Shown here: piece after piece, positions 565 to 12,166 of the stretch
Position numbering within the stretch: the stretch's first letter is position 1
How the letters are laid out: every line of letters begins with the position of its first letter
Source: a virus
Virus genome (UHGV): UHGV-0286708
Direction: 5' to 3' (one strand)
Length of the DNA: 12,166 nucleotides
Notes under the pieces: generated by a model
What the model saw: the letters and a program-made list of their open reading frames with translations, nothing else
The model's database searches: none
What the model was told of the DNA's origin: nothing
Position numbers and translations under genes: made by a program

Positions 565-1197
565 GTGAAAATATATTACGCATTAAAAAGAATAGCGTAT
601 ATTGCAGGTGCTTTATCTATTGGTTGCGGCTCACTACCAATGATTTTCAGCAAAACACCCGCTCTTCAATACTGGGTGCTCGGGGCTTTTTTAATTTTCA
701 TTGGGTATTGCGTATCAAAGCTTGAGTTCGATAAGTCTAAATACATCAAGTACCTAAATGAAAAGAACGATGGGATTTATATTTATTATGCAAAATTTGG
801 TGGCGAAGAGCACGAAATAAAAATCAACACAAAAAACAAAACAATCGAACTAAAGTCAGGGAAAAATTCCGCCACACTAAACTTTGATAACATCAAATCA
901 TGGAGATATAACGTATCTGGCATTAGCAAGGTTAATGTCATTGGTTCCACTAACAGCGTAATGGGTAATTTCACAGCTTTATCTCAAGCCAGTGCAATCA
1001 ACAACCAAGCAGGGTACAGCGCGTGGGATAATAATGGATTCTTTATTCACACAGATGCATTGGCAAATCCTGTCTGGCATATAAAGATAATACCAAAAGA
1101 TGTCGCAATAAACCTTAAGTCTGACAAGTTTTGGAAAAGTGTCGCTGGCGAATGCGAAGTCTGGATGAACGTAATGAACCGAGCCATTAATAAATAG
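565..1197 (+). CDS. Hypothetical membrane-anchored protein, 210 aa (two N-terminal hydrophobic helices, then a soluble domain); AT-rich cargo
   Basis: Intact ORF with GTG start and GGAG 8 nt upstream. Hydrophobic stretches [19 protein letters not shown] and [15 protein letters not shown]. Codon usage is AT-rich, unlike the neighbouring IS1 and phage genes. I recognise no family. Confidence 0.55.
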
Positions 1198-1441
1198 AAG
1201 TCTTACTGTTGAGGCCAGCGCCCGTGATACGGGCACTGGCACAGCACCCAATACCATTCACGGGCATATCAATGATTTTCTGGTGCGCACCGGGCTGAGA
1301 GGCGGTGTAAGTGAACTGTAGTTGCCATGTTTTACGGCAATGAGAGCAGAGATAGCGCTGATGTCCGGCAGTGCTTTTGCCATTACGCACCACCCCGTCA
1401 GTAGCTGAACAGGAGGGACAGCTGATATAAACAGAAGCCAC
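1187..1441 (-). pseudogene. insA: Truncated insA of a divergent IS1 copy (C-terminus replaced by unrelated sequence)
   Basis: Translation [51 protein letters not shown]... is InsA-like, but it ends in ...GLNSKTSIY where homology to the first copy stops (about 1207). Confidence 0.75.
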
Positions 1442-1497
1442 TGGAGCACCTCAAAAACACCATCATACACTAAATCAGTAAGTTGGCAGCATCACCA
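1207..1497 (-). mobile_element. IS1 remnant (about 290 bp: left inverted repeat plus partial insA), same orientation as the first copy
   Basis: Reverse complement of 1483-1497 is GGTGATGCTGCCAAC, the IS1 terminal inverted repeat. Homology to the first copy runs from about 1207 to 1497 with many substitutions, so it is a different IS1 isoform, truncated. Confidence 0.8.
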
Positions 1498-1541
1498 CGG
1501 CTGCGTTACCTCAATTTTTACACGCCTTAGGTGATTGATTT

Positions 1542-2294
1542 ATGGATTATTTTAGTATTGACTTTTTTATCGGTGAGCTCAAAGTAAATTTTAGTCATAA
1601 GGTTGGTAGGCTTTCGACCGCACTACGGGCAGCTAATTGGCAAATCGATATTAGATATTTGAATGGTAATGACCCCGATATTGGTAAAGAAGTGGATAGT
1701 CTTGAGAAAAACGCATTTAAACGAGTGGAGTTTGAGAGGAAGCAGTATCGGATGCTTTGTGATGATGAAGATCCAATTCAGGAAAGGGTCAATAAGATGA
1801 TCTATTTGTCGGCAATAAACTGGTATTTAGGATTATGTATCGTAGCGTCAGATTGGCGTGATGGTGTGAAGATGTTACTTAAATCTACCGAGCTTCTTGA
1901 TATGTGTCATGGCATTATTGAACATGAAATATGGCAACAGATAGAAACAGAAAAAAAAGGACGTGCTATTAATGGGGGTACAGCAAAAGCTGCTATTTAT
2001 GCTCCTCTAAAAGCTGAAATTATTCGTTTGTTGTATTGCAAGAGACCTATAGATGGTTGGAAAAGCAAGAAGGAGGCTTTGAGGGCTATTGATGAAGATA
2101 TATACAAATTTATTCAAAAACATGGCTATCCCGTTTCTCCTGACGCCAAAAAAGAGGGGGAGGCAGAACTTTATTCACGAATCCCCCGCCTGATTGAAGA
2201 TTGGTCAAGAGATGATGCAATAATTAAGGTTGTTTTTGGCTCAACAGTTAAGCACAAAAATAGCGCCCCTAAGGACGCAGAACAGAATAGATAG
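1542..2294 (+). CDS. Hypothetical protein, 250 aa, AT-rich cargo ORF convergent with the adjacent integrase
   Basis: Intact 250-aa ORF with no obvious transmembrane segment. It sits immediately 3' of the P4-type integrase gene, a classic cargo position in integrative islands. I recognise no family. Confidence 0.55.
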   Translation: MDYFSIDFFIGELKVNFSHKVGRLSTALRAANWQIDIRYLNGNDPDIGKEVDSLEKNAFKRVEFERKQYRMLCDDEDPIQERVNKMIYLSAINWYLGLCIVASDWRDGVKMLLKSTELLDMCHGIIEHEIWQQIETEKKGRAINGGTAKAAIYAPLKAEIIRLLYCKRPIDGWKSKKEALRAIDEDIYKFIQKHGYPVSPDAKKEGEAELYSRIPRLIEDWSRDDAIIKVVFGSTVKHKNSAPKDAEQNR

Positions 2295-2304
2295 ATTGTA
2301 TTTA

Positions 2305-2330
2305 ATGCATGATCCTATTGCATATTTTTT
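2305..2330 (+). terminator. Weak candidate intrinsic terminator between the convergent 250-aa ORF and integrase
   Basis: Short stem ATGCA(2305-2309)/TGCAT(2319-2323) followed by ATTTTTT (2324-2330). The stem is only 5 bp. Confidence 0.25.
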
Positions 2331-2335
2331 GACGG

Positions 2336-3577
2336 TTAACCGACAAGGAGTAGTCCATGACTACCATTGTCTATTATGTTACCGTCATGTGCTGCTTTTA
2401 TAAAATCAGCCCACCATTGCATCATAGGGCGGCGTTGCTCAAGATAATCACTGCGGTTATATGCGCGACGTACTTCATTCTTGTCCACATGAGCCAATGC
2501 AGCCTCAATGACATCAGGCGGAAACCCTTGCTCATTGAGTGCCGTACTAGCGATAGAACGTAAACCGTGTGATACGAGTACGCCTCCTAAACCTGCACGC
2601 TTGAGTGCTGCATTCACTGTTTGGCTGTTCATTGGTTGGGTTGGTTTGATGCGACTGGGAAAGATAAATTCTCGGCCACCACTGAGTGACTTCATCATTT
2701 CCAGAATAGAGAGAGCCTCATCGGATAGTGGAATCGTATGGTCCCGGTTCATCTTCATTCGAGCTGCAGGAATTTTCCATTCGTTAGCATCAAAATCGAT
2801 CTCATCCCATCGAGCTTCAGCAGCTTCGGCAGGGCGGGTAATGGTGAGGAGTTGCCACATGAACAGGCACCTTGTGGACAAGCTGATACTTGCCGTACGC
2901 ATAGTCTGCATTAGCTGTGGAAGTTGATCCGGGCGGATGCTTGGCATGTTTTTCTTTTGCGGTTTCTCGAATGCTTTCCCGATGTTTACGCTGGGAACCG
3001 CATCAATCAAGCCCGTGTTCTGCGCATAAATCATGACTTCGTTAATACGCTGACAAAGACGGCGAACAGTCTCTAATGCACCTCTGGCCTGAACCGGCTG
3101 AACGGCTTTAACCAGAGTATGAGCCTTAATCTCAGTGACACTGATATCACCGATTGTTGGGAAAACATCTCTCTCAAGTGAGCGCCATATATCGTCGGCA
3201 TAGTCCTCTGTTACGCTGGCTTTCTTCACATTCCACCAACGCTCAGCAACTAACAGGAAAGTGTTGGTTTTAGCCTCTTGAGAATTTCTCACCAGTTCTT
3301 TCTGATGTTCCTGAGGATCAATGTCTTTCGCCAATAAAACTTTAGATTCGGCTCTGAGTTTACGTGCATCAGAAAGCGAGACGGCAGGGTAGGCCCCAAA
3401 GCTCTGTTTGGTTCGCTGCTTGGTCAGAGGCCGATAGTAACGGAATTGCCAGAGCTTACTGCCGCTGGACTTGATTAACAGAGTAAGCCCGTCACCATCA
3501 TACAGCTGGTAATCGGCATCTTTAGGTTTGGCGGCTTTGATTTCCGTATCGGTTAACGGCTTGGTTTTTCTTGCCAT
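2336..3577 (-). CDS. intA: P4/CP4-57-type tyrosine integrase (IntA/SlpA-like), about 413 aa
   Basis: Probable start is MARKTKPLTDTEIKAAKPKDADYQLYDGDGL... at 3577, with GGAG upstream; the listed ORF extends 11 codons further 5'. It has the integrase arm-binding N-terminus and C-terminal catalytic motifs (RPAEAAEARWDEIDF, HGLRSIAST, Y in RRAYNRSDY). It lies about 205 bp downstream of a tmRNA 3'-end copy in the same orientation, as in the E. coli ssrA-intA arrangement. Confidence 0.9.
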   Translation of the reverse strand: MARKTKPLTDTEIKAAKPKDADYQLYDGDGLTLLIKSSGSKLWQFRYYRPLTKQRTKQSFGAYPAVSLSDARKLRAESKVLLAKDIDPQEHQKELVRNSQEAKTNTFLLVAERWWNVKKASVTEDYADDIWRSLERDVFPTIGDISVTEIKAHTLVKAVQPVQARGALETVRRLCQRINEVMIYAQNTGLIDAVPSVNIGKAFEKPQKKNMPSIRPDQLPQLMQTMRTASISLSTRCLFMWQLLTITRPAEAAEARWDEIDFDANEWKIPAARMKMNRDHTIPLSDEALSILEMMKSLSGGREFIFPSRIKPTQPMNSQTVNAALKRAGLGGVLVSHGLRSIASTALNEQGFPPDVIEAALAHVDKNEVRRAYNRSDYLEQRRPMMQWWADFIKAAHDGNIIDNGSHGLLLVG

Positions 3578-3597
3578 GGGGAGTCTCCATGCGTTTA

Positions 3598-3633
3598 GGC
3601 CCAACGAAAACAATAGAACTTTTCGTTGGGCCT
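3598..3633. promoter_or_regulatory. Perfect 13-bp inverted repeat (hairpin) about 20 nt upstream of the integrase start
   Basis: GGCCCAACGAAAA (3598-3610) and TTTTCGTTGGGCC (3621-3633) are exact reverse complements with a 10-nt loop. Confidence 0.4.
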
Positions 3634-3704
3634 ATCAATGGGCCTAAAAGGTTCGGATTTAATTAGTTCTCTTCAGACTTCGCGGGACAAATTGAGGGCA
3701 CAAA

Positions 3705-3737
3705 AAAGCCCGCAGGGCTTGTGCCATGCGGGCTTTT
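3705..3737 (-). terminator. Intrinsic (bidirectional-type) terminator hairpin downstream of the tmRNA 3'-end copy
   Basis: AAAAGCCCGCA ... TGCGGGCTTTT forms a GC-rich 11-bp stem flanked by an A-run and a T-run. Position fits the native terminator of ssrA. Confidence 0.6.
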
Positions 3738-3780
3738 AGGACTTCATCGGATGACTCTGGTAATCACCGATGGAGAATTT

Positions 3781-3825
3781 TGGTGGAGCTGGCGGGAGTT
3801 GAACCCGCGTCCGAAATTCCTACAT
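3781..3825 (-). other. ssrA: About 45-nt copy of the tmRNA (ssrA) 3' end: attachment-site repeat separating the two integrated elements; not an intact RNA gene
   Basis: Reverse complement reads ATGTAGGAATTTCGGACGCGGGTTCAACTCCCGCCAGCTCCACCA, the acceptor/T-arm end of enterobacterial tmRNA including CCA. Sequence beyond 3825 is AT-rich and unrelated to tmRNA, so only the 3' segment is present. Confidence 0.75.
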
Positions 3826-3938
3826 ACTATTTTTACTGTAATAAAAACAGTGAATTACGTTTAAAAACAGTCCTTTAGTGTTATTTGCTGTTTATACGTT
3901 TTATGCATTTTTAATGCTCTGCCGCCACTTTGTCGCCA

Positions 3939-4997
3939 TTAAATGCGCTGGTCATTTGATATAGGTAAAATGCTTGTAAAGAGTTTTTCGTCATATAGTG
4001 CGTACTCAGGTATGTAATCACCATTGCTTTTATCTGTTTGGAAGATAGAGGGGTCCTTGTCGATTAAAACATATAACTCAATGAGAATATTTCTTAGTCC
4101 CCAAAGCATTTGCTTTAGTTGTTTTTCATCATTGAATGAGATGCTTATGGCTTCCGTATCTGGTTTTGGATGTTCAGGAATTATTGAGAAAAGATGTTCT
4201 TGGTATTTATAATCAATTCCAAGTAGTCTGCAAAGTTGAATTATGTTTGATTCTATGAGTTGTAGGCTAACTAATTGGTTGTCATGATTTTTGTTGTTGG
4301 ACTTAAGCGATTTGTTTATGTTGTTATAATGATTTGTTGTTTTTCGAATAAAATCTTCTTCGACAGCGGTGCTATAGCCATTATCAATGGAAGATGATTT
4401 GAAAATATTTTTATAAAGAGTGTACGGATGAACTACAGATAGTTCAATACTGTCTATATCACTAGTTTCTTTATTTAATCTTGATAATTTAAATGTTGGT
4501 AGTGTTTGGAATATATCAGCGAAGCTTTTCAGATGTGAGTAATATGAATCAGTGGTGTTTTTTTCAATAACAAGATTGATTTGCTTTTGTGTTTTTTCTA
4601 TTTGGTTCTCTGTTTGTGTGGTTCTATGTATATTGTTGACGATTGCTGCAAGAGGTACCGAAGAAGCTAAAATAAATAATGGCAATTTAGAGATGTCAAG
4701 AAAGTGATTAAAACCGTCTGATGTGAAATTTAAATCGTGGCCTTTCCAAGCCCAGAGGCCATACAAAACAAACATTTTTAACGGTACGATAATAGATGCT
4801 ATGAATAATGGTTGTTTTAATAGATTTTTCTCATTTAGTTTAAGCCAATTGAAGCAATAGAACATAAGTATCAATCCAAGTATATAAGCTACACTAAAGA
4901 AGATAAAAACTCTTGGACGATTAGTGTATATCAATGCTAAGGCAATTAAGATAGTAATGATTGCGTAGGTAATGATTAATGTGAGCTTTTTTTTCAT
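3939..4997 (-). CDS. Hypothetical membrane protein (about 352 aa from MKKKL start; 366 aa if the upstream ATG at 5039 is used), N-terminal 3-4 transmembrane helices plus C-terminal soluble domain; AT-rich cargo at the prophage edge
   Basis: Intact ORF. Hydrophobic helices LTLIITYAIITILIALALIY, VFIFFSVAYILGLILMFYCF, PLFIASIIVPLKMFVLYGLWAW and LPLFILASSVPLAAIV. The start at 4997 lies 4 nt after the int stop codon, on the same strand as cI and int. Strongly AT-rich. I recognise no family. Confidence 0.6.
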   Translation of the reverse strand: MKKKLTLIITYAIITILIALALIYTNRPRVFIFFSVAYILGLILMFYCFNWLKLNEKNLLKQPLFIASIIVPLKMFVLYGLWAWKGHDLNFTSDGFNHFLDISKLPLFILASSVPLAAIVNNIHRTTQTENQIEKTQKQINLVIEKNTTDSYYSHLKSFADIFQTLPTFKLSRLNKETSDIDSIELSVVHPYTLYKNIFKSSSIDNGYSTAVEEDFIRKTTNHYNNINKSLKSNNKNHDNQLVSLQLIESNIIQLCRLLGIDYKYQEHLFSIIPEHPKPDTEAISISFNDEKQLKQMLWGLRNILIELYVLIDKDPSIFQTDKSNGDYIPEYALYDEKLFTSILPISNDQRI

Positions 4998-5001
4998 TCT
5001 A

Positions 5002-6018
5002 TTAAACCAAATTATGTAAAGGATTTTTTGTAACAGCATCTTCTAGATGGTCTGGAGAAAAGTGTGCGTAAACCATCGTCATTTTTATATCGGCATGGCC
5101 CAATATTTCTTTAAGGACAAGAATATTCCCGCCATTCATCATAAAATGACTGGCGAATGTATGACGCAGCACGTGGGTGCATTGGCCCTCTGGTAACTCG
5201 ATGCCTGCTCGCTTTACTGCTCGTTCAAAGGCTTTTCTGCACGGTGTGAATAGTTTCCCTCTGTTCTTGGGGAGTTCATCATACAGATTTTGAGATATCG
5301 GCACGGTACGATTTTTCTTACCTTTTGTCTTGGTATAGGTGATCCGGTATTTTGATAACTGATGGCCCTGCAAGTTTTCTGCTTCACTCCATCGCGCACC
5401 AGTAGCTAGGCATATTTTTGCAATCATTAGTAGGCTGGTGTTTTGAGATTCGGCGCAGGCATTAAGCAGGCGTTTGATTTCGTCCGTGGAAAGAAAAGCC
5501 AATTCACCTTCAGCAATTTTGAAGGTTGGAAGCCCTGCCAGCGGGTTTGGTGCGGACCAGTGCCCTAGTTTTTTCAATGTACCGAACACCGATGACAGGT
5601 TACGCTGCTCAAGATTAACTGTGCGAGGTTTAACGGGTGACATGAACGAGCCGTCTTCATTTTGGACCTCCCCCTTTAATCTGGCTTCCCGATATTTTGT
5701 GAAATCACCTGCTGTCAGCTCAGAGGCGATGGGATCGCCTAGACCATTACAGATAATTCTAAGTTTCGCCATCAGGCGTTTGGGGTCTGCGAGTGTTTGA
5801 CCATATAGGGAATACCACTGCTCAATCACTTCTGATAATCGCCGCCGATCTTCCTTCTCACCAAGCCATGGCTTTTTGTTTACTTCGTCCATGGTGAAGC
5901 TTTCAAATGCAATGGCTTCGCCTTTGGTAGCAAATTGCTTACGCACGCGCTTACCATTGCGTCCATTGGGATAGCACTCACACAACCATTTTCCGTTCGG
6001 CTGTTTTCTGATGGTCAT
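5002..6018 (-). CDS. int: P2/186-family phage integrase (tyrosine recombinase), 338 aa
   Basis: N-terminus ...PNGKWLCECYPNGRNGKRVRKQF... and C-terminal motifs (LATGARWSEA, HVLRHTFASHFMMNGGNILVLKEILGH, MVYAHF) are typical of P2-type Int. Its start is 3 nt after the cI stop. Confidence 0.9.
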   Translation of the reverse strand: MTIRKQPNGKWLCECYPNGRNGKRVRKQFATKGEAIAFESFTMDEVNKKPWLGEKEDRRRLSEVIEQWYSLYGQTLADPKRLMAKLRIICNGLGDPIASELTAGDFTKYREARLKGEVQNEDGSFMSPVKPRTVNLEQRNLSSVFGTLKKLGHWSAPNPLAGLPTFKIAEGELAFLSTDEIKRLLNACAESQNTSLLMIAKICLATGARWSEAENLQGHQLSKYRITYTKTKGKKNRTVPISQNLYDELPKNRGKLFTPCRKAFERAVKRAGIELPEGQCTHVLRHTFASHFMMNGGNILVLKEILGHADIKMTMVYAHFSPDHLEDAVTKNPLHNLV

Positions 6019-6021
6019 AAG

Positions 6022-6660
6022 TTAGAGGTTCTTGATTACTTTGACTGCACGTCCTACGACTTCCACATCATCTACAGAACATTCAAATGAAGTGTCATCT
6101 TGGTTAACTACTATTTTGTTTCCGGGTATGCGCGCAATTTTGACGATGCTTTTAACTCCGTCCATATCGACTAACCAGAAGCCATTACTGACTTGTTTAA
6201 CGGACGTATCCACTACAAAGCTATTATTAGCTGTTTTAACAAATAAAGCGTTGGATGAGTCACCATCGAGCAGGCTGCTATCAAGAAGAATTTCATCACT
6301 TGCCTGCAGTTCGCCGTTCTTCAGTTCAACACGTTTGATGCTAGGAGCAACGATCTTAGAAAGTGGTCTTACAGTGACGGGAGGTTCATTTTTGAGATTT
6401 GTTTCTTCGTTCTCACACGCATACATATCTCCTTGACCAGTAGCCAGCCATAGAAGGGAAACTCCTGTTTCAAGGGCACATTGAATTACCCATTCGGCAG
6501 GAAAGCTATCCCTTAAGTATCTGTTAGCCATAGTGCTTTTGGATACCTCCAGATGTTCGCAGAGCTGCTGTCGTGAACTGAAGTTGTAAGCCTTAATAAG
6601 CCTGTTAATTGCATCGCGCCCACCACTATCATTTCCCGCCTTGATCAAACTCATAATCAA
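6022..6660 (-). CDS. cI: Phage CI-type immunity repressor (186-like), about 210 aa
   Basis: N-terminal HTH region ...LCEHLEVSKSTMANRYLRDSFPAEWVIQCALETGVSLLWLATGQG is typical of CI-type repressors, with a C-terminal oligomerisation-type domain. It is divergent from the apl/cII operon and tightly coupled to int. Confidence 0.8.
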   Translation of the reverse strand: MIMSLIKAGNDSGGRDAINRLIKAYNFSSRQQLCEHLEVSKSTMANRYLRDSFPAEWVIQCALETGVSLLWLATGQGDMYACENEETNLKNEPPVTVRPLSKIVAPSIKRVELKNGELQASDEILLDSSLLDGDSSNALFVKTANNSFVVDTSVKQVSNGFWLVDMDGVKSIVKIARIPGNKIVVNQDDTSFECSVDDVEVVGRAVKVIKNL

Positions 6661-6665
6661 ACCCC

Positions 6666-6694
6666 TTGACGTATATAAAAAGTGATCCTAATAT
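6666..6694 (+). promoter_or_regulatory. Near-consensus sigma-70 promoter directing the rightward early (lytic) operon (pR/Pe equivalent)
   Basis: -35 TTGACG (6666-6671), 17-nt spacer, -10 TAATAT (6689-6694). It starts 6 bp from the cI start codon and is about 75 bp upstream of the apl-like ORF. Confidence 0.55.
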
Positions 6695-6770
6695 CCATTT
6701 ATGGTTTGAAAAGCAAAACCAAACCACATAAAACAAGATAAAACGAAACCAAACTAAGAGATACTGCACT

Positions 6771-7013
6771 ATGAGTACTGATATTTCAATTCGTGTACCA
6801 AAAGAGATGGCTACGCCTGCAGAGTTCGCGGAATGGGAAGGTATCTCCCGCGGCTCCGTGTATCAAAAAATTCACCATGGTCAGCTTGCTAAATACATGG
6901 TCAAGAAAGAAAAAAACAAAGGCCGCGTAAGCCTGCGTTATTTAATGTACAAAACCGATCAGGTCCGTGAATCCCTCGGTCATTCCAACTTCCGCGTCAT
7001 TGTTGGTAAGTAA
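6771..7013 (+). CDS. Apl/Cox-like small DNA-binding protein (excisionase/transcriptional regulator), 80 aa
   Basis: First gene of the rightward operon, opposite cI. Small basic protein with an HTH-like segment (FAEWEGISRGSVYQKIHHGQL). The call is positional, by analogy with 186 apl and P2 cox. Confidence 0.55.
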   Translation: MSTDISIRVPKEMATPAEFAEWEGISRGSVYQKIHHGQLAKYMVKKEKNKGRVSLRYLMYKTDQVRESLGHSNFRVIVGK

Positions 7014-7045
7014 GTTCAATTATGAGAACTTTCTAAGGGGGTAGC

Positions 7046-7555
7046 ATGTTTGATTATAAGATTTCCAAACACCCGCATTTTGATGAAGCCTGTAGAGCTT
7101 TTGCACTTCGTCACAATATGGCGAAGCTGGCAGAACGTGCAGGAATGAATGTCCAGACTCTGCGAAACAAACTCAACCCAGATCAACCGCATCAGCTCAA
7201 TGCGCCAGAAATCTGGCTGCTTACCGATCTGACTGAAGATTCAACGCTGATAGATGGTTTTCTGGCACAGATTCACTGCCTGCCATGTGTACCGATTAAT
7301 GAGGTAGCAAAAGAGAAACTGCCGCATTACGTCATGAGTGCAACCGCAGAGATCGGGCGTGTTGCTGCAGGTGCGGTATCTGGCAATGTAAAAACCAGTG
7401 CAGGTCGTCGTGATGCTATCAGCAGCATTAACTCTGTAACACGACTGATGGCGCTGGCTGCTGTTTCATTGCAGGCCCGTTTACAGGCTAACCCGGCGAT
7501 GGCGAGTGCAGTTGATACCATGACTGGCCTTGGTGCTTCATTCGGTTTGCTGTGA
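7046..7555 (+). CDS. cII: Phage CII-like regulatory protein (186 CII family), 169 aa
   Basis: Same length class as coliphage 186 CII. HTH segment HNMAKLAERAGMNVQTLRNKLNP, position immediately after apl, and GGGG-containing RBS upstream. Confidence 0.75.
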   Translation: MFDYKISKHPHFDEACRAFALRHNMAKLAERAGMNVQTLRNKLNPDQPHQLNAPEIWLLTDLTEDSTLIDGFLAQIHCLPCVPINEVAKEKLPHYVMSATAEIGRVAAGAVSGNVKTSAGRRDAISSINSVTRLMALAAVSLQARLQANPAMASAVDTMTGLGASFGLL

Positions 7556-7562
7556 GGTGCTT

Positions 7563-7763
7563 ATGCTTACGAAAGAACCATCATTTGCATCGCTGCTGGT
7601 TAAACAAAGCCCGGCAATGCACTACGGTCACGGCTGGATCATGGGTGAGGATGGTAAACGCTGGCATCCGTGCCGTTCACAAGATGAATTGCTGGCAGAA
7701 CTATCTACGAAAAAACGGGGGAACAAATGGCTATTGAAGGCGCTGCGGCGACTGTTCCATTAA
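7563..7763 (+). CDS. Small hypothetical early protein, about 66 aa (position of 186 fil-type gene)
   Basis: Likely start MLTKEPSFASLL... with GAGG upstream. Its 3' end overlaps the next gene start by 37 nt. No family recognised. Confidence 0.4.
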   Translation: MLTKEPSFASLLVKQSPAMHYGHGWIMGEDGKRWHPCRSQDELLAELSTKKRGNKWLLKALRRLFH

Positions 7764-8068
7764 GCCCCGGTCAACGCCTGAATGGACTTAATCACATTGC
7801 GGAGTTAAGGGCGAAAGTTTTTGGTCTGAATATTGAGTCAGAGCTTGAGCGGTTTATTAAAGATATGCGTGATCCACGCGATATTAATAGCGAACAAAAT
7901 AAACGGGCACTGGCTGCCATATTCTTTATGGCAAAAATTCCAGCTGAACGTCACAGCATCAGCATTAATGAGCTGACCACTGACGAAAAGCGGGAGTTGA
8001 TTAAAGCAATGAATCATTTTCGTGCAGTAGTGAGCTTATTCCCCAGACGACTAACCATGCCGAATTAA
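7727..8068 (+). CDS. Hypothetical phage early protein, 113 aa
   Basis: Intact ORF with GGGGGA RBS about 7 nt upstream. Lies in the P2/186 early-operon region between cII and the TraR-like gene. Confidence 0.5.
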   Translation: MAIEGAAATVPLSPGQRLNGLNHIAELRAKVFGLNIESELERFIKDMRDPRDINSEQNKRALAAIFFMAKIPAERHSISINELTTDEKRELIKAMNHFRAVVSLFPRRLTMPN

Positions 8069-8135
8069 CAAACTAATGAACTTCATGGCGTAAACACGCC
8101 GGGTATCCCTTTACCTAAATTCAGGAGAATTGATT

Positions 8136-8369
8136 ATGCGTAATATTGAAACCCTCACGACTAAAACCGGACCGGATGATGCAGGGCTTAATATTTTACT
8201 GACAGAGGCTCGTCTGGAAGAACGCCGGGCAAGAGCTGAAGCAATGGCAGCTCGCCTTGATAGCCTTGCGTGCCATATCACATCCCGCCAGCTAAACCAC
8301 GTTGAAGCGGCTGAACTGCTGCGTGTGGCAGCTGAAGCAATCCAGAACGAAGCGCAGGAGATCCACTAA
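8136..8369 (+). CDS. Hypothetical small phage protein, about 77 aa (helical, Ala/Glu/Arg-rich)
   Basis: ATG at 8136 with AGGAG 8 nt upstream; the listed ORF begins at an in-frame TTG at 8130. Its stop overlaps the next start (TAATG). Confidence 0.5.
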   Translation: MRNIETLTTKTGPDDAGLNILLTEARLEERRARAEAMAARLDSLACHITSRQLNHVEAAELLRVAAEAIQNEAQEIH

Positions 8370-8596
8370 TGGCTGATGCAATGGATCTCGTACAGCAGCG
8401 CGTTGAAGAAGAACGCCAGCGTCATATCCGTACTGCCCGTGCCAAAACGCCGGGCGTGTCCCGCGTGCTTTGCATTGAGTGTGAAGCGCCAATTCCGCCA
8501 GCACGCCGCCGTGCCATTCCGGGTGTGCAGCTTTGCATTACCTGTCAGGAAATCGCAGAGCTGAAAGGCAAACATTACAACGGAGGTGCTGTATGA
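8369..8596 (+). CDS. TraR/DksA-family C4 zinc-finger protein, 75 aa
   Basis: CIECEAPIP...CITCQ gives the four-cysteine CxxC-N17-CxxC arrangement typical of phage TraR-like proteins. AGGAG RBS upstream. Confidence 0.75.
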   Translation: MADAMDLVQQRVEEERQRHIRTARAKTPGVSRVLCIECEAPIPPARRRAIPGVQLCITCQEIAELKGKHYNGGAV

Positions 8597-9450
8597 GCAC
8601 CATCCTGAAATGGGCGGGAAATAAAACCGCCATTATGTCCGAACTGAAAAAGCATCTTCCTGCTGGCCCGCGACTGGTTGAACCTTTCGCGGGTTCCTGT
8701 GCAGTGATGATGGAGACGGAGTACCCCAGCTATCTTGTTGCGGATATTAATCCTGATTTAATCAACCTCTATAAAAAGGTTGCTGCTGATTGTGAATCAT
8801 TTATATCTCGCGCCAGAGTTTTATTTGAGATCGCAAACAGGGAGGTAGCTTATTACAACATAAGGCAGGAGTTTAATTACTCAACTGAAATTACTGATTT
8901 CATGAAAGCGGTATATTTCCTGTATCTCAATCGTCACGGTTACCGTGGTTTATGTCGCTATAACAAGAGCGGGCATTTCAACATTCCCTACGGTAATTAT
9001 AAAAATCCGTATTTCCCTGAAAAAGAAATTCGCGCATTTGCAGAAAAAGCCCAGCGAGCAACGTTTATCTGCGCCAGCTTTGATGAAACGCTGGCGATGT
9101 TGAAGGCGGGGGATGTGGTGTATTGCGATCCGCCGTATGACGGTACGTTTTCCGGCTATCACACTGATGGTTTCACTGAAGATGACCAGTATCACCTGGC
9201 ATCCGTTCTTGAACATCGGTCATCAGAAGGACATCCGGTCATTGTTTCTAACAGTGACACATCCCTGATCCGTTCGCTGTATCGCAATTTTACTCACCAC
9301 TATATCAAGGTAAAACGCAGCATCGGTGTGGCAGCTGGCGAGGGTAAATCAGCAACAGAAATCATTGCTGTTTCCGGGCCGCGCTGCTGGTTGGGATTTG
9401 ATTATTCGCGTGGCGTGGATAGTTCTGCCGTGTACGGAGTGCGTGCATGA
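8593..9450 (+). CDS. dam: Dam-type N6-adenine DNA methyltransferase, about 285 aa, phage-encoded orphan methylase
   Basis: From [11 protein letters not shown] it parallels E. coli Dam: [39 protein letters not shown] and the catalytic DPPY ([10 protein letters not shown]). ATGA overlap with the TraR-like stop. Confidence 0.9.
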
Positions 9451-11861
9451 GCCATGCTGATATGAACAACTGCAGCGGCTTTAACGAGGCCGCCGCAGCA
9501 TTCTCATGGAACAGCCCGAAAAAGGCTATTAACCCTTATCTGGACCCGGCGGAAGTTGCGCCGGTTTCTGCGCTTTCAAACCTGATCACTCTGTACGCTG
9601 CCGATAACGAGCAGGAACAACTGCGCCGCGAGGCACTGAGTGATCAGGTCTGGGAGCGTTATTTCTTTAATGAATCCCTTGATCCTGTCCAACGCGAAAT
9701 GGAGCAGGATAAGCTCATTAGCCGGGCAAAGCTGGCGCATGAGCAGCAGCGTTTTAATCCGGACATGGTCATACTGGCGGACGTTAAAGCCCAGCCCTCC
9801 CATATCAGCAAGCCGCTGATGCAACGTATTGAATACTTCAGCAGCCTGGGCAGGCCAAAGGCTTATTCCCGCTATTTGCGTGAAACGATTAAGCCATGTC
9901 TGGAACGACTGGAGCATGTACGCGACAGTCAGCTATCCACTTCTTTTCGCTTTATGGCAAGCCATGAAGGGCTGGACGGCCTGCTGATCCTGCCTGAAAT
10001 GAGTCAGGATCAGGTGAAACGCCTGTCTACTCTTGTCGCTGCGCATATGAGCATGTGTCTTGATGCCGCTTGTGGTGATTTGTACGCCACCGATGATGTT
10101 AAGCCAGAAGAAATCCGCAAGACATGGGAAAAGGTGGCAGCAGAAACCCTGCGACTGGATGTCATACCGCCTGCGTTTGAGCAACTCCGCCGGAAAAGAA
10201 ACCGCCGTAAACCCGTACCCTATGAACTCATTCCGGGTTCGCTGGCGCGTATGTTGTGCGCCGACTGGTGGTATCGGAAATTATGGAAGATGCGTTGCGA
10301 ATGGCGGGAAGAGCAGTTGCGTGCTGTTTGCCTGGTCAGCAAAAAAGCATCTCCCTATGTCAGCTATGAAGCCGTGATGCATAAACGTGAGCAGCGCCGT
10401 AAGTCGCTGGAGTTTTTCCGTTCTCATGAACTAGTGAACGAAGACGGCGACACGCTGGATATGGAGGACGTGGTAAACGCCAGTAGTAGCAACCCGGCGC
10501 ATCGCCGCAATGAGATGATGGCATGTGTTAAAGGTCTGGAGCTTATCGCGGAAATGCGCGGTGACTGCGCCGTTTTCTACACCATCACCTGTCCGTCACG
10601 TTTCCATTCCACGCTAAATAACGGCAGGCCCAACCCAACCTGGACAAATGCGACGGTAAGACAAAGCAGTGATTATCTGGTCGGCATGTTTGCTGCATTT
10701 CGTAAGGCGATGTACAAAGCCGGATTGCGCTGGTATGGCGTGCGGGTGGCTGAGCCGCATCATGACGGTACAGTTCACTGGCACCTGTTGTGTTTTATGC
10801 GCAAAAAAGATCGCCGCGCCATTACTGCTTTGTTGCGTAAGTTTGCCATTCGTGAAGACCGCGAGGAGCTGGGTAATAACACAGGACCACGCTTTAAGTC
10901 TGAGCTGATAAACCCGCGCAAAGGTACGCCAACAAGCTACATCGCGAAATACATCAGTAAGAACATTGACGGGCGTGGTCTGGCTGGCGAGATCAGCAAG
11001 GAAACGGGTAAATCCCTGCGTGATAACGCTGAATACGTTAATGCCTGGGCGTCTCTTCATCGTGTTCAGCAATTCCGCTTCTTTGGCATTCCGGGGCGTC
11101 AGGCTTACCGTGAACTGCGATTGCTGGCTGGTCAGGCGGCAAGGCAACAGGGGGACAAAAAAGCAGGTGCGGCGGTACTGGATAACCCACGCCTTGATGC
11201 CATCCTGGCTGCTGCTGATGCTGGTTGTTTTGCCACCTACATCATGAAGCAGGGCGGCGTACTGGTTCCCCGCAAATATCACCTCATCAGAACCGCTTAT
11301 GAAATCAACGAAGAGCCGACCGCCTATGGCGATCACGGCATTCGTATTTATGGCATCTGGTCACCCATTGCAGAGGGCAAGATCTGCACTCATGCAGTGA
11401 AGTGGAAAATGGTTCGTAAGGCCGTTGACGTTCAGGAGGCGGCAGCCGACCAGGGCGCTTGCGCCCCTTGGACTCGTGGCAATAACTGTCCCCTTGCCGA
11501 AAATTTGAACCAACAGGAGAAAGATAAATCAGCTGATGGGGACACCAGAACGGATATTACCCGCATGGATGACAAGGCGTTGCACGATTACCTGCACAGT
11601 ATGAGCAAAAAAGAGTGCCGGGAACTGGCAGCAAGGTTACGCCTGGTGAAACCGAAACGGCGTAAAGACTACAAACAGCGAATTACAGACCATCAGCGAC
11701 TGCAGCTCGTGTATGAGCTGAAGTCCAGAGGATTTGATGGCAGCGAGAAAGAGGTCGATTTACTCCTTCGCGGAGGCAGTATTCCGTCAGGAGCAGGCCT
11801 GCGTATCTTCTATCGGAACCAGCGTTTGCAGGAAGATGATAAGTGGCGGAACCTGTATTAA
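9447..11861 (+). CDS. A: Replication initiation protein gpA (P2/186 gene A, rolling-circle HUH endonuclease), 804 aa
   Basis: Large ORF in the gene-A position, coupled to dam by an ATGA overlap. It has an HUH-like motif ([10 protein letters not shown]) and paired tyrosines ([10 protein letters not shown]), as expected for the gpA nickase. Confidence 0.85.
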
Positions 11862-11954
11862 TTACGCTGGTTAACAATTCGTGCTCTTAATAATACCAGG
11901 CATATCAGGCTGATAAGCGTAAAAAAAACGTTTTACATCAGTAAGATTATTATA

Positions 11955-11974
11955 TACTGTAAATATAAACAGTG
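11955..11974. promoter_or_regulatory. LexA-box-like palindrome (SOS operator) upstream of the next ORF
   Basis: TACTGTAAATATAAACAGTG has the form CTGT-N8-ACAG with an AT-rich spacer, matching the LexA consensus TACTGT(AT)4ACAGTA at about 17 of 20 positions. A TTTACA hexamer (11932-11937) lies 17 nt upstream. Confidence 0.5.
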
Positions 11975-12015
11975 GTTATACATACAGTATTGCGTGTGGT
12001 GTCATAGGAGGAAAG

Positions 12016-12166
12016 ATGCAGGACTATTTTTTGGAGTCTTTGAAGCTCCAGCGCATTGATTTTTTTCTTAAGCTTGTAGCGGCTAGTGAGTGTAGTGATG
12101 AAGAGAAGGGGCTGGCTCTGCAGTGGGTTTCTGAATTGACTGATGAACTCATGGCAAAAATCAGAA
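12016..12166 (+). CDS. 5' part of an ORF running off the window (at least 50 aa); hypothetical, possibly SOS-regulated (position analogous to 186 tum and the P2-family cargo region after gene A)
   Basis: ATG at 12016 with GGAGG 4-9 nt upstream; open to the window end (MQDYFLESLKLQRIDFFLKLVAASECSDEEKGLALQWVSELTDELMAKIR...). Absent from the ORF track only because no stop is reached. Confidence 0.45.
   Translation, partial: MQDYFLESLKLQRIDFFLKLVAASECSDEEKGLALQWVSELTDELMAKIR

Follow-up and report, generated by a model that had tools for sequence, protein, structure and literature searches.

The stretch of DNA analysed here, called the window, is the 12,166-nucleotide sequence of the UHGV virus genome UHGV-0286708, and the gene in question is an open reading frame (ORF) at positions 1542-2294, which lies beside a P4/CP4-57-type integrase gene. 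A reading made from the letters and a list of ORFs (the sequence-only reading) had described it as intact, AT-rich and convergent with the integrase gene, and had proposed that it is variable cargo, possibly anti-phage, of an island at ssrA, the gene for transfer-messenger RNA (tmRNA). The observation itself is confirmed and the interpretation is partly supported. The ORF very probably belongs to the uncharacterised YfjH family as one of its divergent members, corresponds by position to yfjH in the CP4-57 element of Escherichia coli K-12 and is a backbone gene of its islands. The features of this region, whose intact counterpart is found in E. coli TW01221, are:

1207-1496, minus strand: truncated IS1 copy with an InsA-like ORF, 90.7% identical to the IS1 copy at 82-371
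1497-1541, plus strand: remnant of the native region between alpA and the yfjH-like gene, 45 bp, with the invariant block ACGGCTGCGTTACCTCAATTTTTACAC and the Shine-Dalgarno sequence AGGTGA
1542-2294, plus strand: YfjH-like gene, 250 residues, ATG start, intact (ORF list, homologs, and the ratio of nonsynonymous to synonymous substitution rates, dN/dS)
1542-1946, plus strand: N-terminal domain, residues 1-135, acidic (isoelectric point, pI, 5.1), modelled as a bundle of long helices with a predicted local distance difference test score (pLDDT) mostly of 82-95
1947-2261, plus strand: C-terminal domain, residues 136-240, basic (pI about 9.5), conserved across about 200 representative clusters
2263-2278, minus strand: terminator-like GC hairpin with a T-run, oriented for the integrase transcript (consensus scan of the window and TW01221)
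2336-3577, minus strand: IntA-type (P4/CP4-57-type) tyrosine integrase, 413 residues, with the Pfam domains Arm-DNA-bind_3, Phage_int_M and Phage_integrase
3781-3828, minus strand: last 48 nucleotides of ssrA, forming the attachment-site core (partial match to the Rfam tmRNA model; homology to the TW01221 ssrA ends at 3828)

The ORF has a GC content of 38.6%, against 47.9% in the integrase gene, and the two convergent genes are separated by 41 bp, so the sequence-only reading was right on composition and orientation. Its product is 100% identical to WP_126722364.1 of TW01221, which NCBI labels "hypothetical protein" and nothing more. No transmembrane segment is found in the protein, as that reading had also stated, and a membrane protein is rejected since the maximum Kyte-Doolittle mean over 19 residues (1.29) is under the threshold. 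The exact allele is rare: of 5,426 complete E. coli genomes 3 carry it, as does a single metagenome contig, which has the TW01221 gene arrangement. A search of 5.8 billion proteins gives 19 homolog clusters with 41-96% identity, all from Enterobacterales and 243-257 residues long, save one partial sequence of 210 residues, and a second search with a wide alignment adds only four further proteins. A profile search of 1.84 billion representatives reaches about 200 clusters, the majority of which align only to the C-terminal 110 residues or so. Since the ORF is as long as its homologs, decay from a longer gene, an alternative raised in the sequence-only reading, is rejected. Its dN/dS across homolog pairs is 0.25-0.33 (0.03-0.12 for int), which means that the reading frame is under purifying selection. 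The search of 50,697 phage records with tblastn gives a single weak match, located inside island DNA that adjoins a P2-like prophage, and scans of viral contigs give zero relatives.

The sequence-only reading could place the protein in no family, and this holds for Pfam, NCBIfam and PADLOC, where the ORF has zero family matches. It does not hold for other comparisons, in which the protein is a divergent homolog of YfjH. Residues 66-240 match phrog_19089 (E value 2e-20), to which the protein belongs by this match and which itself has no assigned function. The comparison with K-12 YfjH (b2623) by BLASTP gives an E value of 1e-14 with 23% identity over 159 residues, and the family profile aligns to YfjH with an hhalign probability of 98.4%, residues 18-242 of the ORF product lying on 39-317 of YfjH. 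The motif GGxAKA...LKxE.IRLL...P..GWK...A / WSRxDxxVKxAF is present in the ORF product, in YfjH and in diverse representatives, and its C-terminal form GGxxKA...GWK...WS.xD..VK.AF is shared by the ORF product and YfjH, which differs by having about 40 more residues in its N-terminal half. The slot is also the same. K-12 has the order alpA (minus), yfjH (plus), intA (minus), ssrA, so that yfjH, like the ORF, is divergent from alpA and convergent with intA. The window integrase, 100% identical to TW01221 IntA, is 93% identical to K-12 IntA at the amino-acid level, in agreement with the type assigned to it in the sequence-only reading, while AlpA is only 57% identical between K-12 and TW01221. 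The integrase is listed among the ORFs as 2336-3613, and its homologs begin with MARKTKPL, which corresponds to position 3577.

The literature searched holds no characterisation of YfjH. It reports that in-vitro transcription of yfjH prefers the RNA polymerase with sigma-S and that yfjH undergoes parallel deletions in long-term stationary-phase culture. The ORF thus adds a rare allele to a y-gene family that had been catalogued before, and does not amount to a novel type of system. The annotated start of K-12 YfjH (L012, the K-12 locus, 4750-4830) is probably 27 codons too far upstream. The family alignment and the leader block AATTTTTACA...TTGATTT place the real start probably at M28 (MISLNDFYEQ...), which would give K-12 a spacer of about 124 bp between alpA and yfjH, near the 116 bp of its relatives.

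The place of the gene was compared in 11 loci of the close family, which come from E. coli TW01221, a second E. coli, Klebsiella, Enterobacter mori, E. cloacae, Serratia marcescens, S. proteamaculans, Pantoea ananatis, Yersinia ruckeri, Buttiauxella and one metagenomic member with 41% identity. The gene order is AlpA (minus), a spacer of 105-117 bp, the ORF (plus) and Int (minus) in all 11, and in TW01221 alpA lies 116 bp upstream of the ORF. The module is found with two integrase lineages, which are 34% identical to each other, at ssrA and at non-ssrA sites, so homologs do occupy the equivalent slot of related islands, as the sequence-only reading had suggested should be looked for. The cargo past alpA varies by locus and includes QatABCD with a Hachiman-like pair (HamB matches), Kiwa (KwaA/KwaB), a Lamassu-like set and capsule export genes. 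Replacement of the ORF by unrelated genes was seen in none of the related loci examined. A gene of the same family is therefore present in every locus, whatever the cargo or the integrase, which makes the ORF part of the island backbone and not cargo.

The core of these islands consists, in all likelihood, of Int, the YfjH-like protein and AlpA, followed by a replication-like operon with a DUF3987 (YfjI-type) gene. Distant members of the family, which have about 28% identity or are longer proteins, also point away from a small gene, behind which comes a DUF3987 (YfjI-type) gene. In the three loci with such members the small gene encodes AlpA in L024 and has no Pfam match in L025 and L026, and DUF3987/YfjI-type genes lie behind the divergent small gene or alpA in all three and in K-12. 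Downstream of the distant member there is a Pfam-confirmed integrase in L025 and a cut product of 94 residues, of unknown family, in L026. In L024 a HamA gene and a DEAD helicase gene are found there, and the contig ends before any integrase gene.

In some relatives the YfjH-like gene and int are separated by additional genes: one in a Klebsiella locus, one in an S. marcescens locus, three in Klebsiella Kp4865-2, and the Hachiman pair of L024. Those with coordinates are:

L005 8902-9861, minus strand: 319 residues, weak Hjc-like match
L003 10779-11852, minus strand: 357 residues
L023 6485-9676, plus strand: three genes, including kinase-like proteins

These inserts in L005, L003 and L023 have no PADLOC match. 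The true variable slot beside the integrase seems to be this gap. The idea of an integrase-adjacent hotspot is thus borne out in that the islands carry anti-phage cargo and the gap to int accepts genes, and fails in that the ORF is a fixed landmark and not an insert.

These data also bear on the proposal that the ORF is a stand-alone anti-phage defence gene, carried as cargo in the hotspot beside the integrase. Its AT-richness and its rarity in E. coli, the wealth of Qat, Hachiman, Kiwa and Lamassu-like genes in the islands and the genes taken up by the gap would agree with such a role. The constant presence of a homolog at its position speaks against it, and so does the homology to yfjH, a conserved CP4-57 gene of the sort that the sequence-only reading had itself named as evidence against its proposal. 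At E <= 1, PADLOC-DB v2 yields 0 families for either protein, the ORF product or YfjH, in searches that did match HamB and KwaA/KwaB in neighbouring genes of related islands. For the ORF, the analysis found neither an enzymatic or effector domain nor a transmembrane segment or a partner gene. A stand-alone defence function is therefore very improbable. The comparison with the defence cargo of P4-like satellites and P2-like phages leads to the same contrast: the ORF likewise sits beside a P4-type integrase with defence systems near it in related islands, but that cargo is swapped, while the ORF is constant in presence and position and matches no defence model. In the parts of the islands examined, the psu, delta and sid genes of P4 are not seen, and CP4-57-type genes (alpA, DUF3987/YfjI, YfjJ) are found instead.

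Next to alpA, the TW01221 island encodes a protein of 266 residues and a DEAD helicase of 1,095 residues (L001 4548-8628), with matches to the HamB (Hachiman) models at an E value of 4.5e-34. The helicase gene abpB of K-12 CP4-57, located on the same side a few genes past alpA (L012 1-1999), may encode an equivalent Hachiman-type helicase.

The variability of the ORF is, by these alignments, one of sequence and not of presence or absence. Between the Klebsiella and TW01221 islands the amino-acid identity is 95% for Int, 90% for AlpA and 55% for the ORF product, and from TW01221 to K-12 that of the ORF product falls to 23%, beside the higher values for Int and AlpA given above. A sliding window along TW01221 and Klebsiella shows 53-80% nucleotide identity over the ORF and 90-97% in both flanks, and the trough is lowest at the N-terminal codons. 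No other spot of the island diverges as strongly. The mean pairwise identity in the close family is 51-52% for residues 1-86 and 63-69% for residues 87-200 and 216-240. The spacer between alpA and the ORF has 86% mean column identity across genera, against 54-86% amino-acid identity of the protein. Allele identities show essentially no correlation among ORF, alpA and int, which marks the module as a recombinational mosaic, and co-evolution of the ORF with AlpA or Int is rejected on the same ground. Such sharp and localised divergence usually marks a protein in a specific antagonistic or recognition interaction.

One interaction of this kind would be counter-defence, in which a fast-evolving backbone protein binds and neutralises abortive-infection or toxin effectors and so protects the element or its helper on entry into, or induction in, a new host. 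K-12 yfjH is a match among the prophage-derived overexpression "blockers" of the retron-Sen2 toxin RcaT in a TIC screen (bioRxiv 10.1101/2020.06.22.160242), which is repeated in PMC11951105. The N-terminal bias of the divergence and a dN/dS above that of the neighbours are as expected of an arms-race protein, and the all-helical architecture with a tetratricopeptide repeat (TPR)-like element, described below, suits protein binding. However, this is one overexpression screen, in which induction artefacts as well as proteases and chaperones (clpA, clpX, dnaJ) also came out as blockers; yfjH may therefore act indirectly, and the screen does not state whether yfjH is among the 11 re-validated blockers. 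The ORF product is only 23% identical to YfjH, its dN/dS indicates purifying and not positive selection overall, and toxin blocking leaves the tight, universal coupling to alpA and the conserved spacer unexplained. Counter-defence is rather unlikely on this balance.

The AlphaFold2 model built on the family alignment is all-helical, with a mean pLDDT of 81, and separates the two domains listed above. The most variable part of the protein is the first 86 residues or so of the N-terminal domain. The same domain has one TPR-like hairpin at about residues 92-128, of which profile positions 99-128 weakly match designed consensus-TPR chains, with no single stretch passing alone; Pfam gives no TPR match for the ORF and diverse relatives. 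The C-terminal domain carries the motif KK..GGxAKAxxYxxLKxEIIRLL..P..GWK...A...I...FI ... WSRxDxxVKxAF and keeps a pLDDT of 80 when modelled separately. Comparison with solved structures gives no informative match for the whole model, which finds generic bundles, or for the C-terminal domain. The PDB sequence search gives nothing with the single protein and only the weak TPR-like hairpin with the profile, and the Pfam scan of 50 diverse relatives gives no consistent match. DNA binding by the ORF product is at most plausible.

The hairpin at 2263-2278, which is the predicted terminator of the integrase gene, falls within the ORF codons for a disordered C-terminal tail (KNSAPKDAE; pLDDT < 50). 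The tail motif KKSAPKGA is conserved in homologs and may be constrained at the DNA rather than at the protein level.

Positions 1497-3828 of the window are 100% identical to the intact TW01221 island. Position 1496, 45 bp ahead of the ORF start codon, is the end of the IS1 terminal inverted repeat, and IS1 takes the place of alpA, the Hachiman-like pair, Qat and the rest of the island. The IS1 debris is thus located upstream of the ORF and not after it as in the sequence-only reading, which was correct in suspecting a neighbour lost to it, namely alpA. The ORF of the window is an orphan beside int, with alpA and everything beyond deleted by IS1. The junction lies exactly at the edge of the leader block ACGGCTGCGTTACC...TTTTTACAC, which is nearly invariant across six genera in the alignment of nine loci, and for this reason the ribosome-binding site and 45 bp of native leader are kept.

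The window copy could accordingly be a silent relic, intact only because the IS1 event is recent and with no current function. IS1 has removed alpA and all but 45 bp of the upstream region, promoter scans find no sigma-70-like site upstream of the ORF in the window, and the 100% identity to the TW01221 allele leaves no time for decay. The same scans find none in the native locus either, which makes them uninformative on this point; the IS1 junction, at the edge of the invariant leader block, leaves this block and the Shine-Dalgarno sequence whole, and the family as a whole is under purifying selection. That this copy has no function is doubtful, and its possible silence would be independent of any role proposed here for the family.

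The setting at ssrA, also suggested in the sequence-only reading, is correct as far as the last 48 nucleotides of the gene are concerned, but ARAGORN finds no complete ssrA gene in the window; a P2/186-like (Fels-2-like) prophage arm integrated into ssrA occupies 3829-12166 and parts the island remnant from the rest of the gene. The prophage genes are:

5002-6018: int
6022-6660: CI
6771-7013: apl/cox-like gene
7046-7555: cII-like gene
8533-9450: Dam methylase
9447-11861: replication protein A

The same tandem of island and prophage at ssrA is found in the Klebsiella record L023 (OK490418.1). A P4-type element beside a P2-type potential helper may exceed coincidence, or simply result from the shared attachment site.

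The occupation of ssrA in tandem by different elements, in the window and in the Klebsiella record, is one argument for exclusion or immunity between elements, in which the ORF product would block the establishment or induction of related islands at the same attachment site. The many divergent alleles, shuffled independently of int and alpA, agree with this, and their diversity would then mirror immunity specificities, an improbable account of the diversity. The gene is also kept beside int in a decayed remnant, which may reflect a pattern that is common for immunity genes. Against it, specificity by DNA recognition would predict a control region that differs from allele to allele, and the region is nearly invariant. 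As a whole, exclusion is improbable.

The strongest clue to function is position, beside int and divergent from the alpA-led operon, and it leads to a tentative reading, less than probable but preferred here, in which the ORF product is the maintenance regulator or sensor of the island itself. The ORF would be transcribed divergently from the alpA-led operon across the highly conserved control region of about 116 bp. The basic, helical C-terminal domain would bind nucleic acid, either the control region or the alpA leader, and would thereby keep alpA down and, with it, excision and replication. The acidic, fast-diverging N-terminal domain, helical and TPR-like, would bind a variable protein signal, whether of phage, host or competing element, and this binding would relieve the repression of alpA. 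The conserved control region, the conserved basic C-terminus, the fast-diverging acidic N-terminus and the independence from AlpA and Int alleles all fit a regulator with a variable sensor.

In P2, 186 and the Staphylococcus aureus pathogenicity islands (SaPIs), the repressor gene is a neighbour of int and reads away from an operon whose first gene encodes the excisionase. Like the C/CI genes of P2/186 and the Stl/Rpr genes of SaPIs and other phage-inducible chromosomal islands (PICIs), the ORF is next to int and divergent from an operon that is led by an excisionase or regulator gene and has replication genes behind it. The window holds a parallel for this repressor slot in the prophage, where CI (6022-6660) is opposite apl (6771-7013). 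The ORF also shares with these repressors a strong sequence divergence between otherwise similar elements, which is established for Stl (PMC6092414). It differs from them in that the searches made recognised neither sequence similarity nor confident structural similarity to them, nor a helix-turn-helix. For the Gram-negative islands driven by AlpA no global repressor is known, and an unidentified signal of the helper phage turns on alpA (PMC6092414).

Several points weigh against a regulator. The spacer has no clear sigma-70 promoter, and its operator-like repeats are not beyond chance. Pfam recognises no helix-turn-helix or other DNA-binding family, whether the full-length protein or the isolated C-terminal domains of nine diverse members are scanned. 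The direction of the ORF relative to int is convergent, whereas the P2/186 repressor and Stl genes are co-directional with int. Classical Gram-negative PICIs such as EcCICFT073, which have int and alpA, are not known to hold such a gene. In the related element CP4So of Shewanella, silencing is reported to be due to the host protein H-NS (PMC8034616). If this silencing carried over, a repressor encoded by the element would not be strictly needed. The silenced target in CP4So is reportedly alpA.

The leader of alpA in TW01221 (L001 8938-8971) contains an 11-nucleotide inverted repeat, TTCCTCTAATC / GATGAGAGGAA, which is conserved across genera in L002-L009, partly recognisable in K-12 and absent from the window. 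On the mRNA it would pair an anti-Shine-Dalgarno sequence with the Shine-Dalgarno sequence of alpA, AGAGGAA, and this suggests translational control of alpA via the leader repeat.

Two other ORFs of the window deserve mention. An AT-rich ORF of 366 residues (3939-5039, minus strand, about 30-33% GC) lies between the ssrA-derived attachment core and the P2-like integrase gene, overlaps the 3' end of the latter by 38 bp and encodes hydrophobic segments at its N-terminus. Pfam and PADLOC give no match for it; it does match phrog_17460 (E value 8e-49), whose function is unknown, and has a 36%-identical homolog of 309 residues in the same slot of Klebsiella Kp4865-2. It looks like a variable moron in the slot between the attachment site and int of P2-like phages and may be more promising for defence than the ORF at 1542-2294. 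The second is an ORF of 210 residues at 565-1197 (plus strand), with a DUF4755 match (E value 2e-12) and a hydrophobic N-terminal region, which is flanked by two IS1 copies. The 835-bp segment between them (372-1206) has no megablast match in the 5,426 complete E. coli genomes. This DUF4755 ORF is rejected as a partner of the YfjH-like gene because IS1 lies in between and it bears no relation to the native locus.

The link to yfjH, the invariant module of int, yfjH-like gene and alpA, and the localised hypervariability were not met in the literature searched. A family of "hypothetical" proteins can now be connected with yfjH and given a fixed position within the int-alpA recombination and regulation module of ssrA-type defence islands. 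The YfjH-like family is thereby a concrete candidate for what keeps alpA off, or senses the inducing phage, in Gram-negative elements controlled by AlpA (PMC6092414). In its widest form, which is speculative and unlikely, this would make the YfjH-like proteins the missing element-encoded master regulator of the AlpA-driven CP4-57/P4-type islands of Enterobacterales, a functional analogue of the SaPI Stl on a new fold. The C-terminal domain would shut the alpA control region and the hypervariable N-terminal domain would be the receptor for allele-specific inducer proteins of phage or host. If true, it would explain how defence islands sense when to excise.

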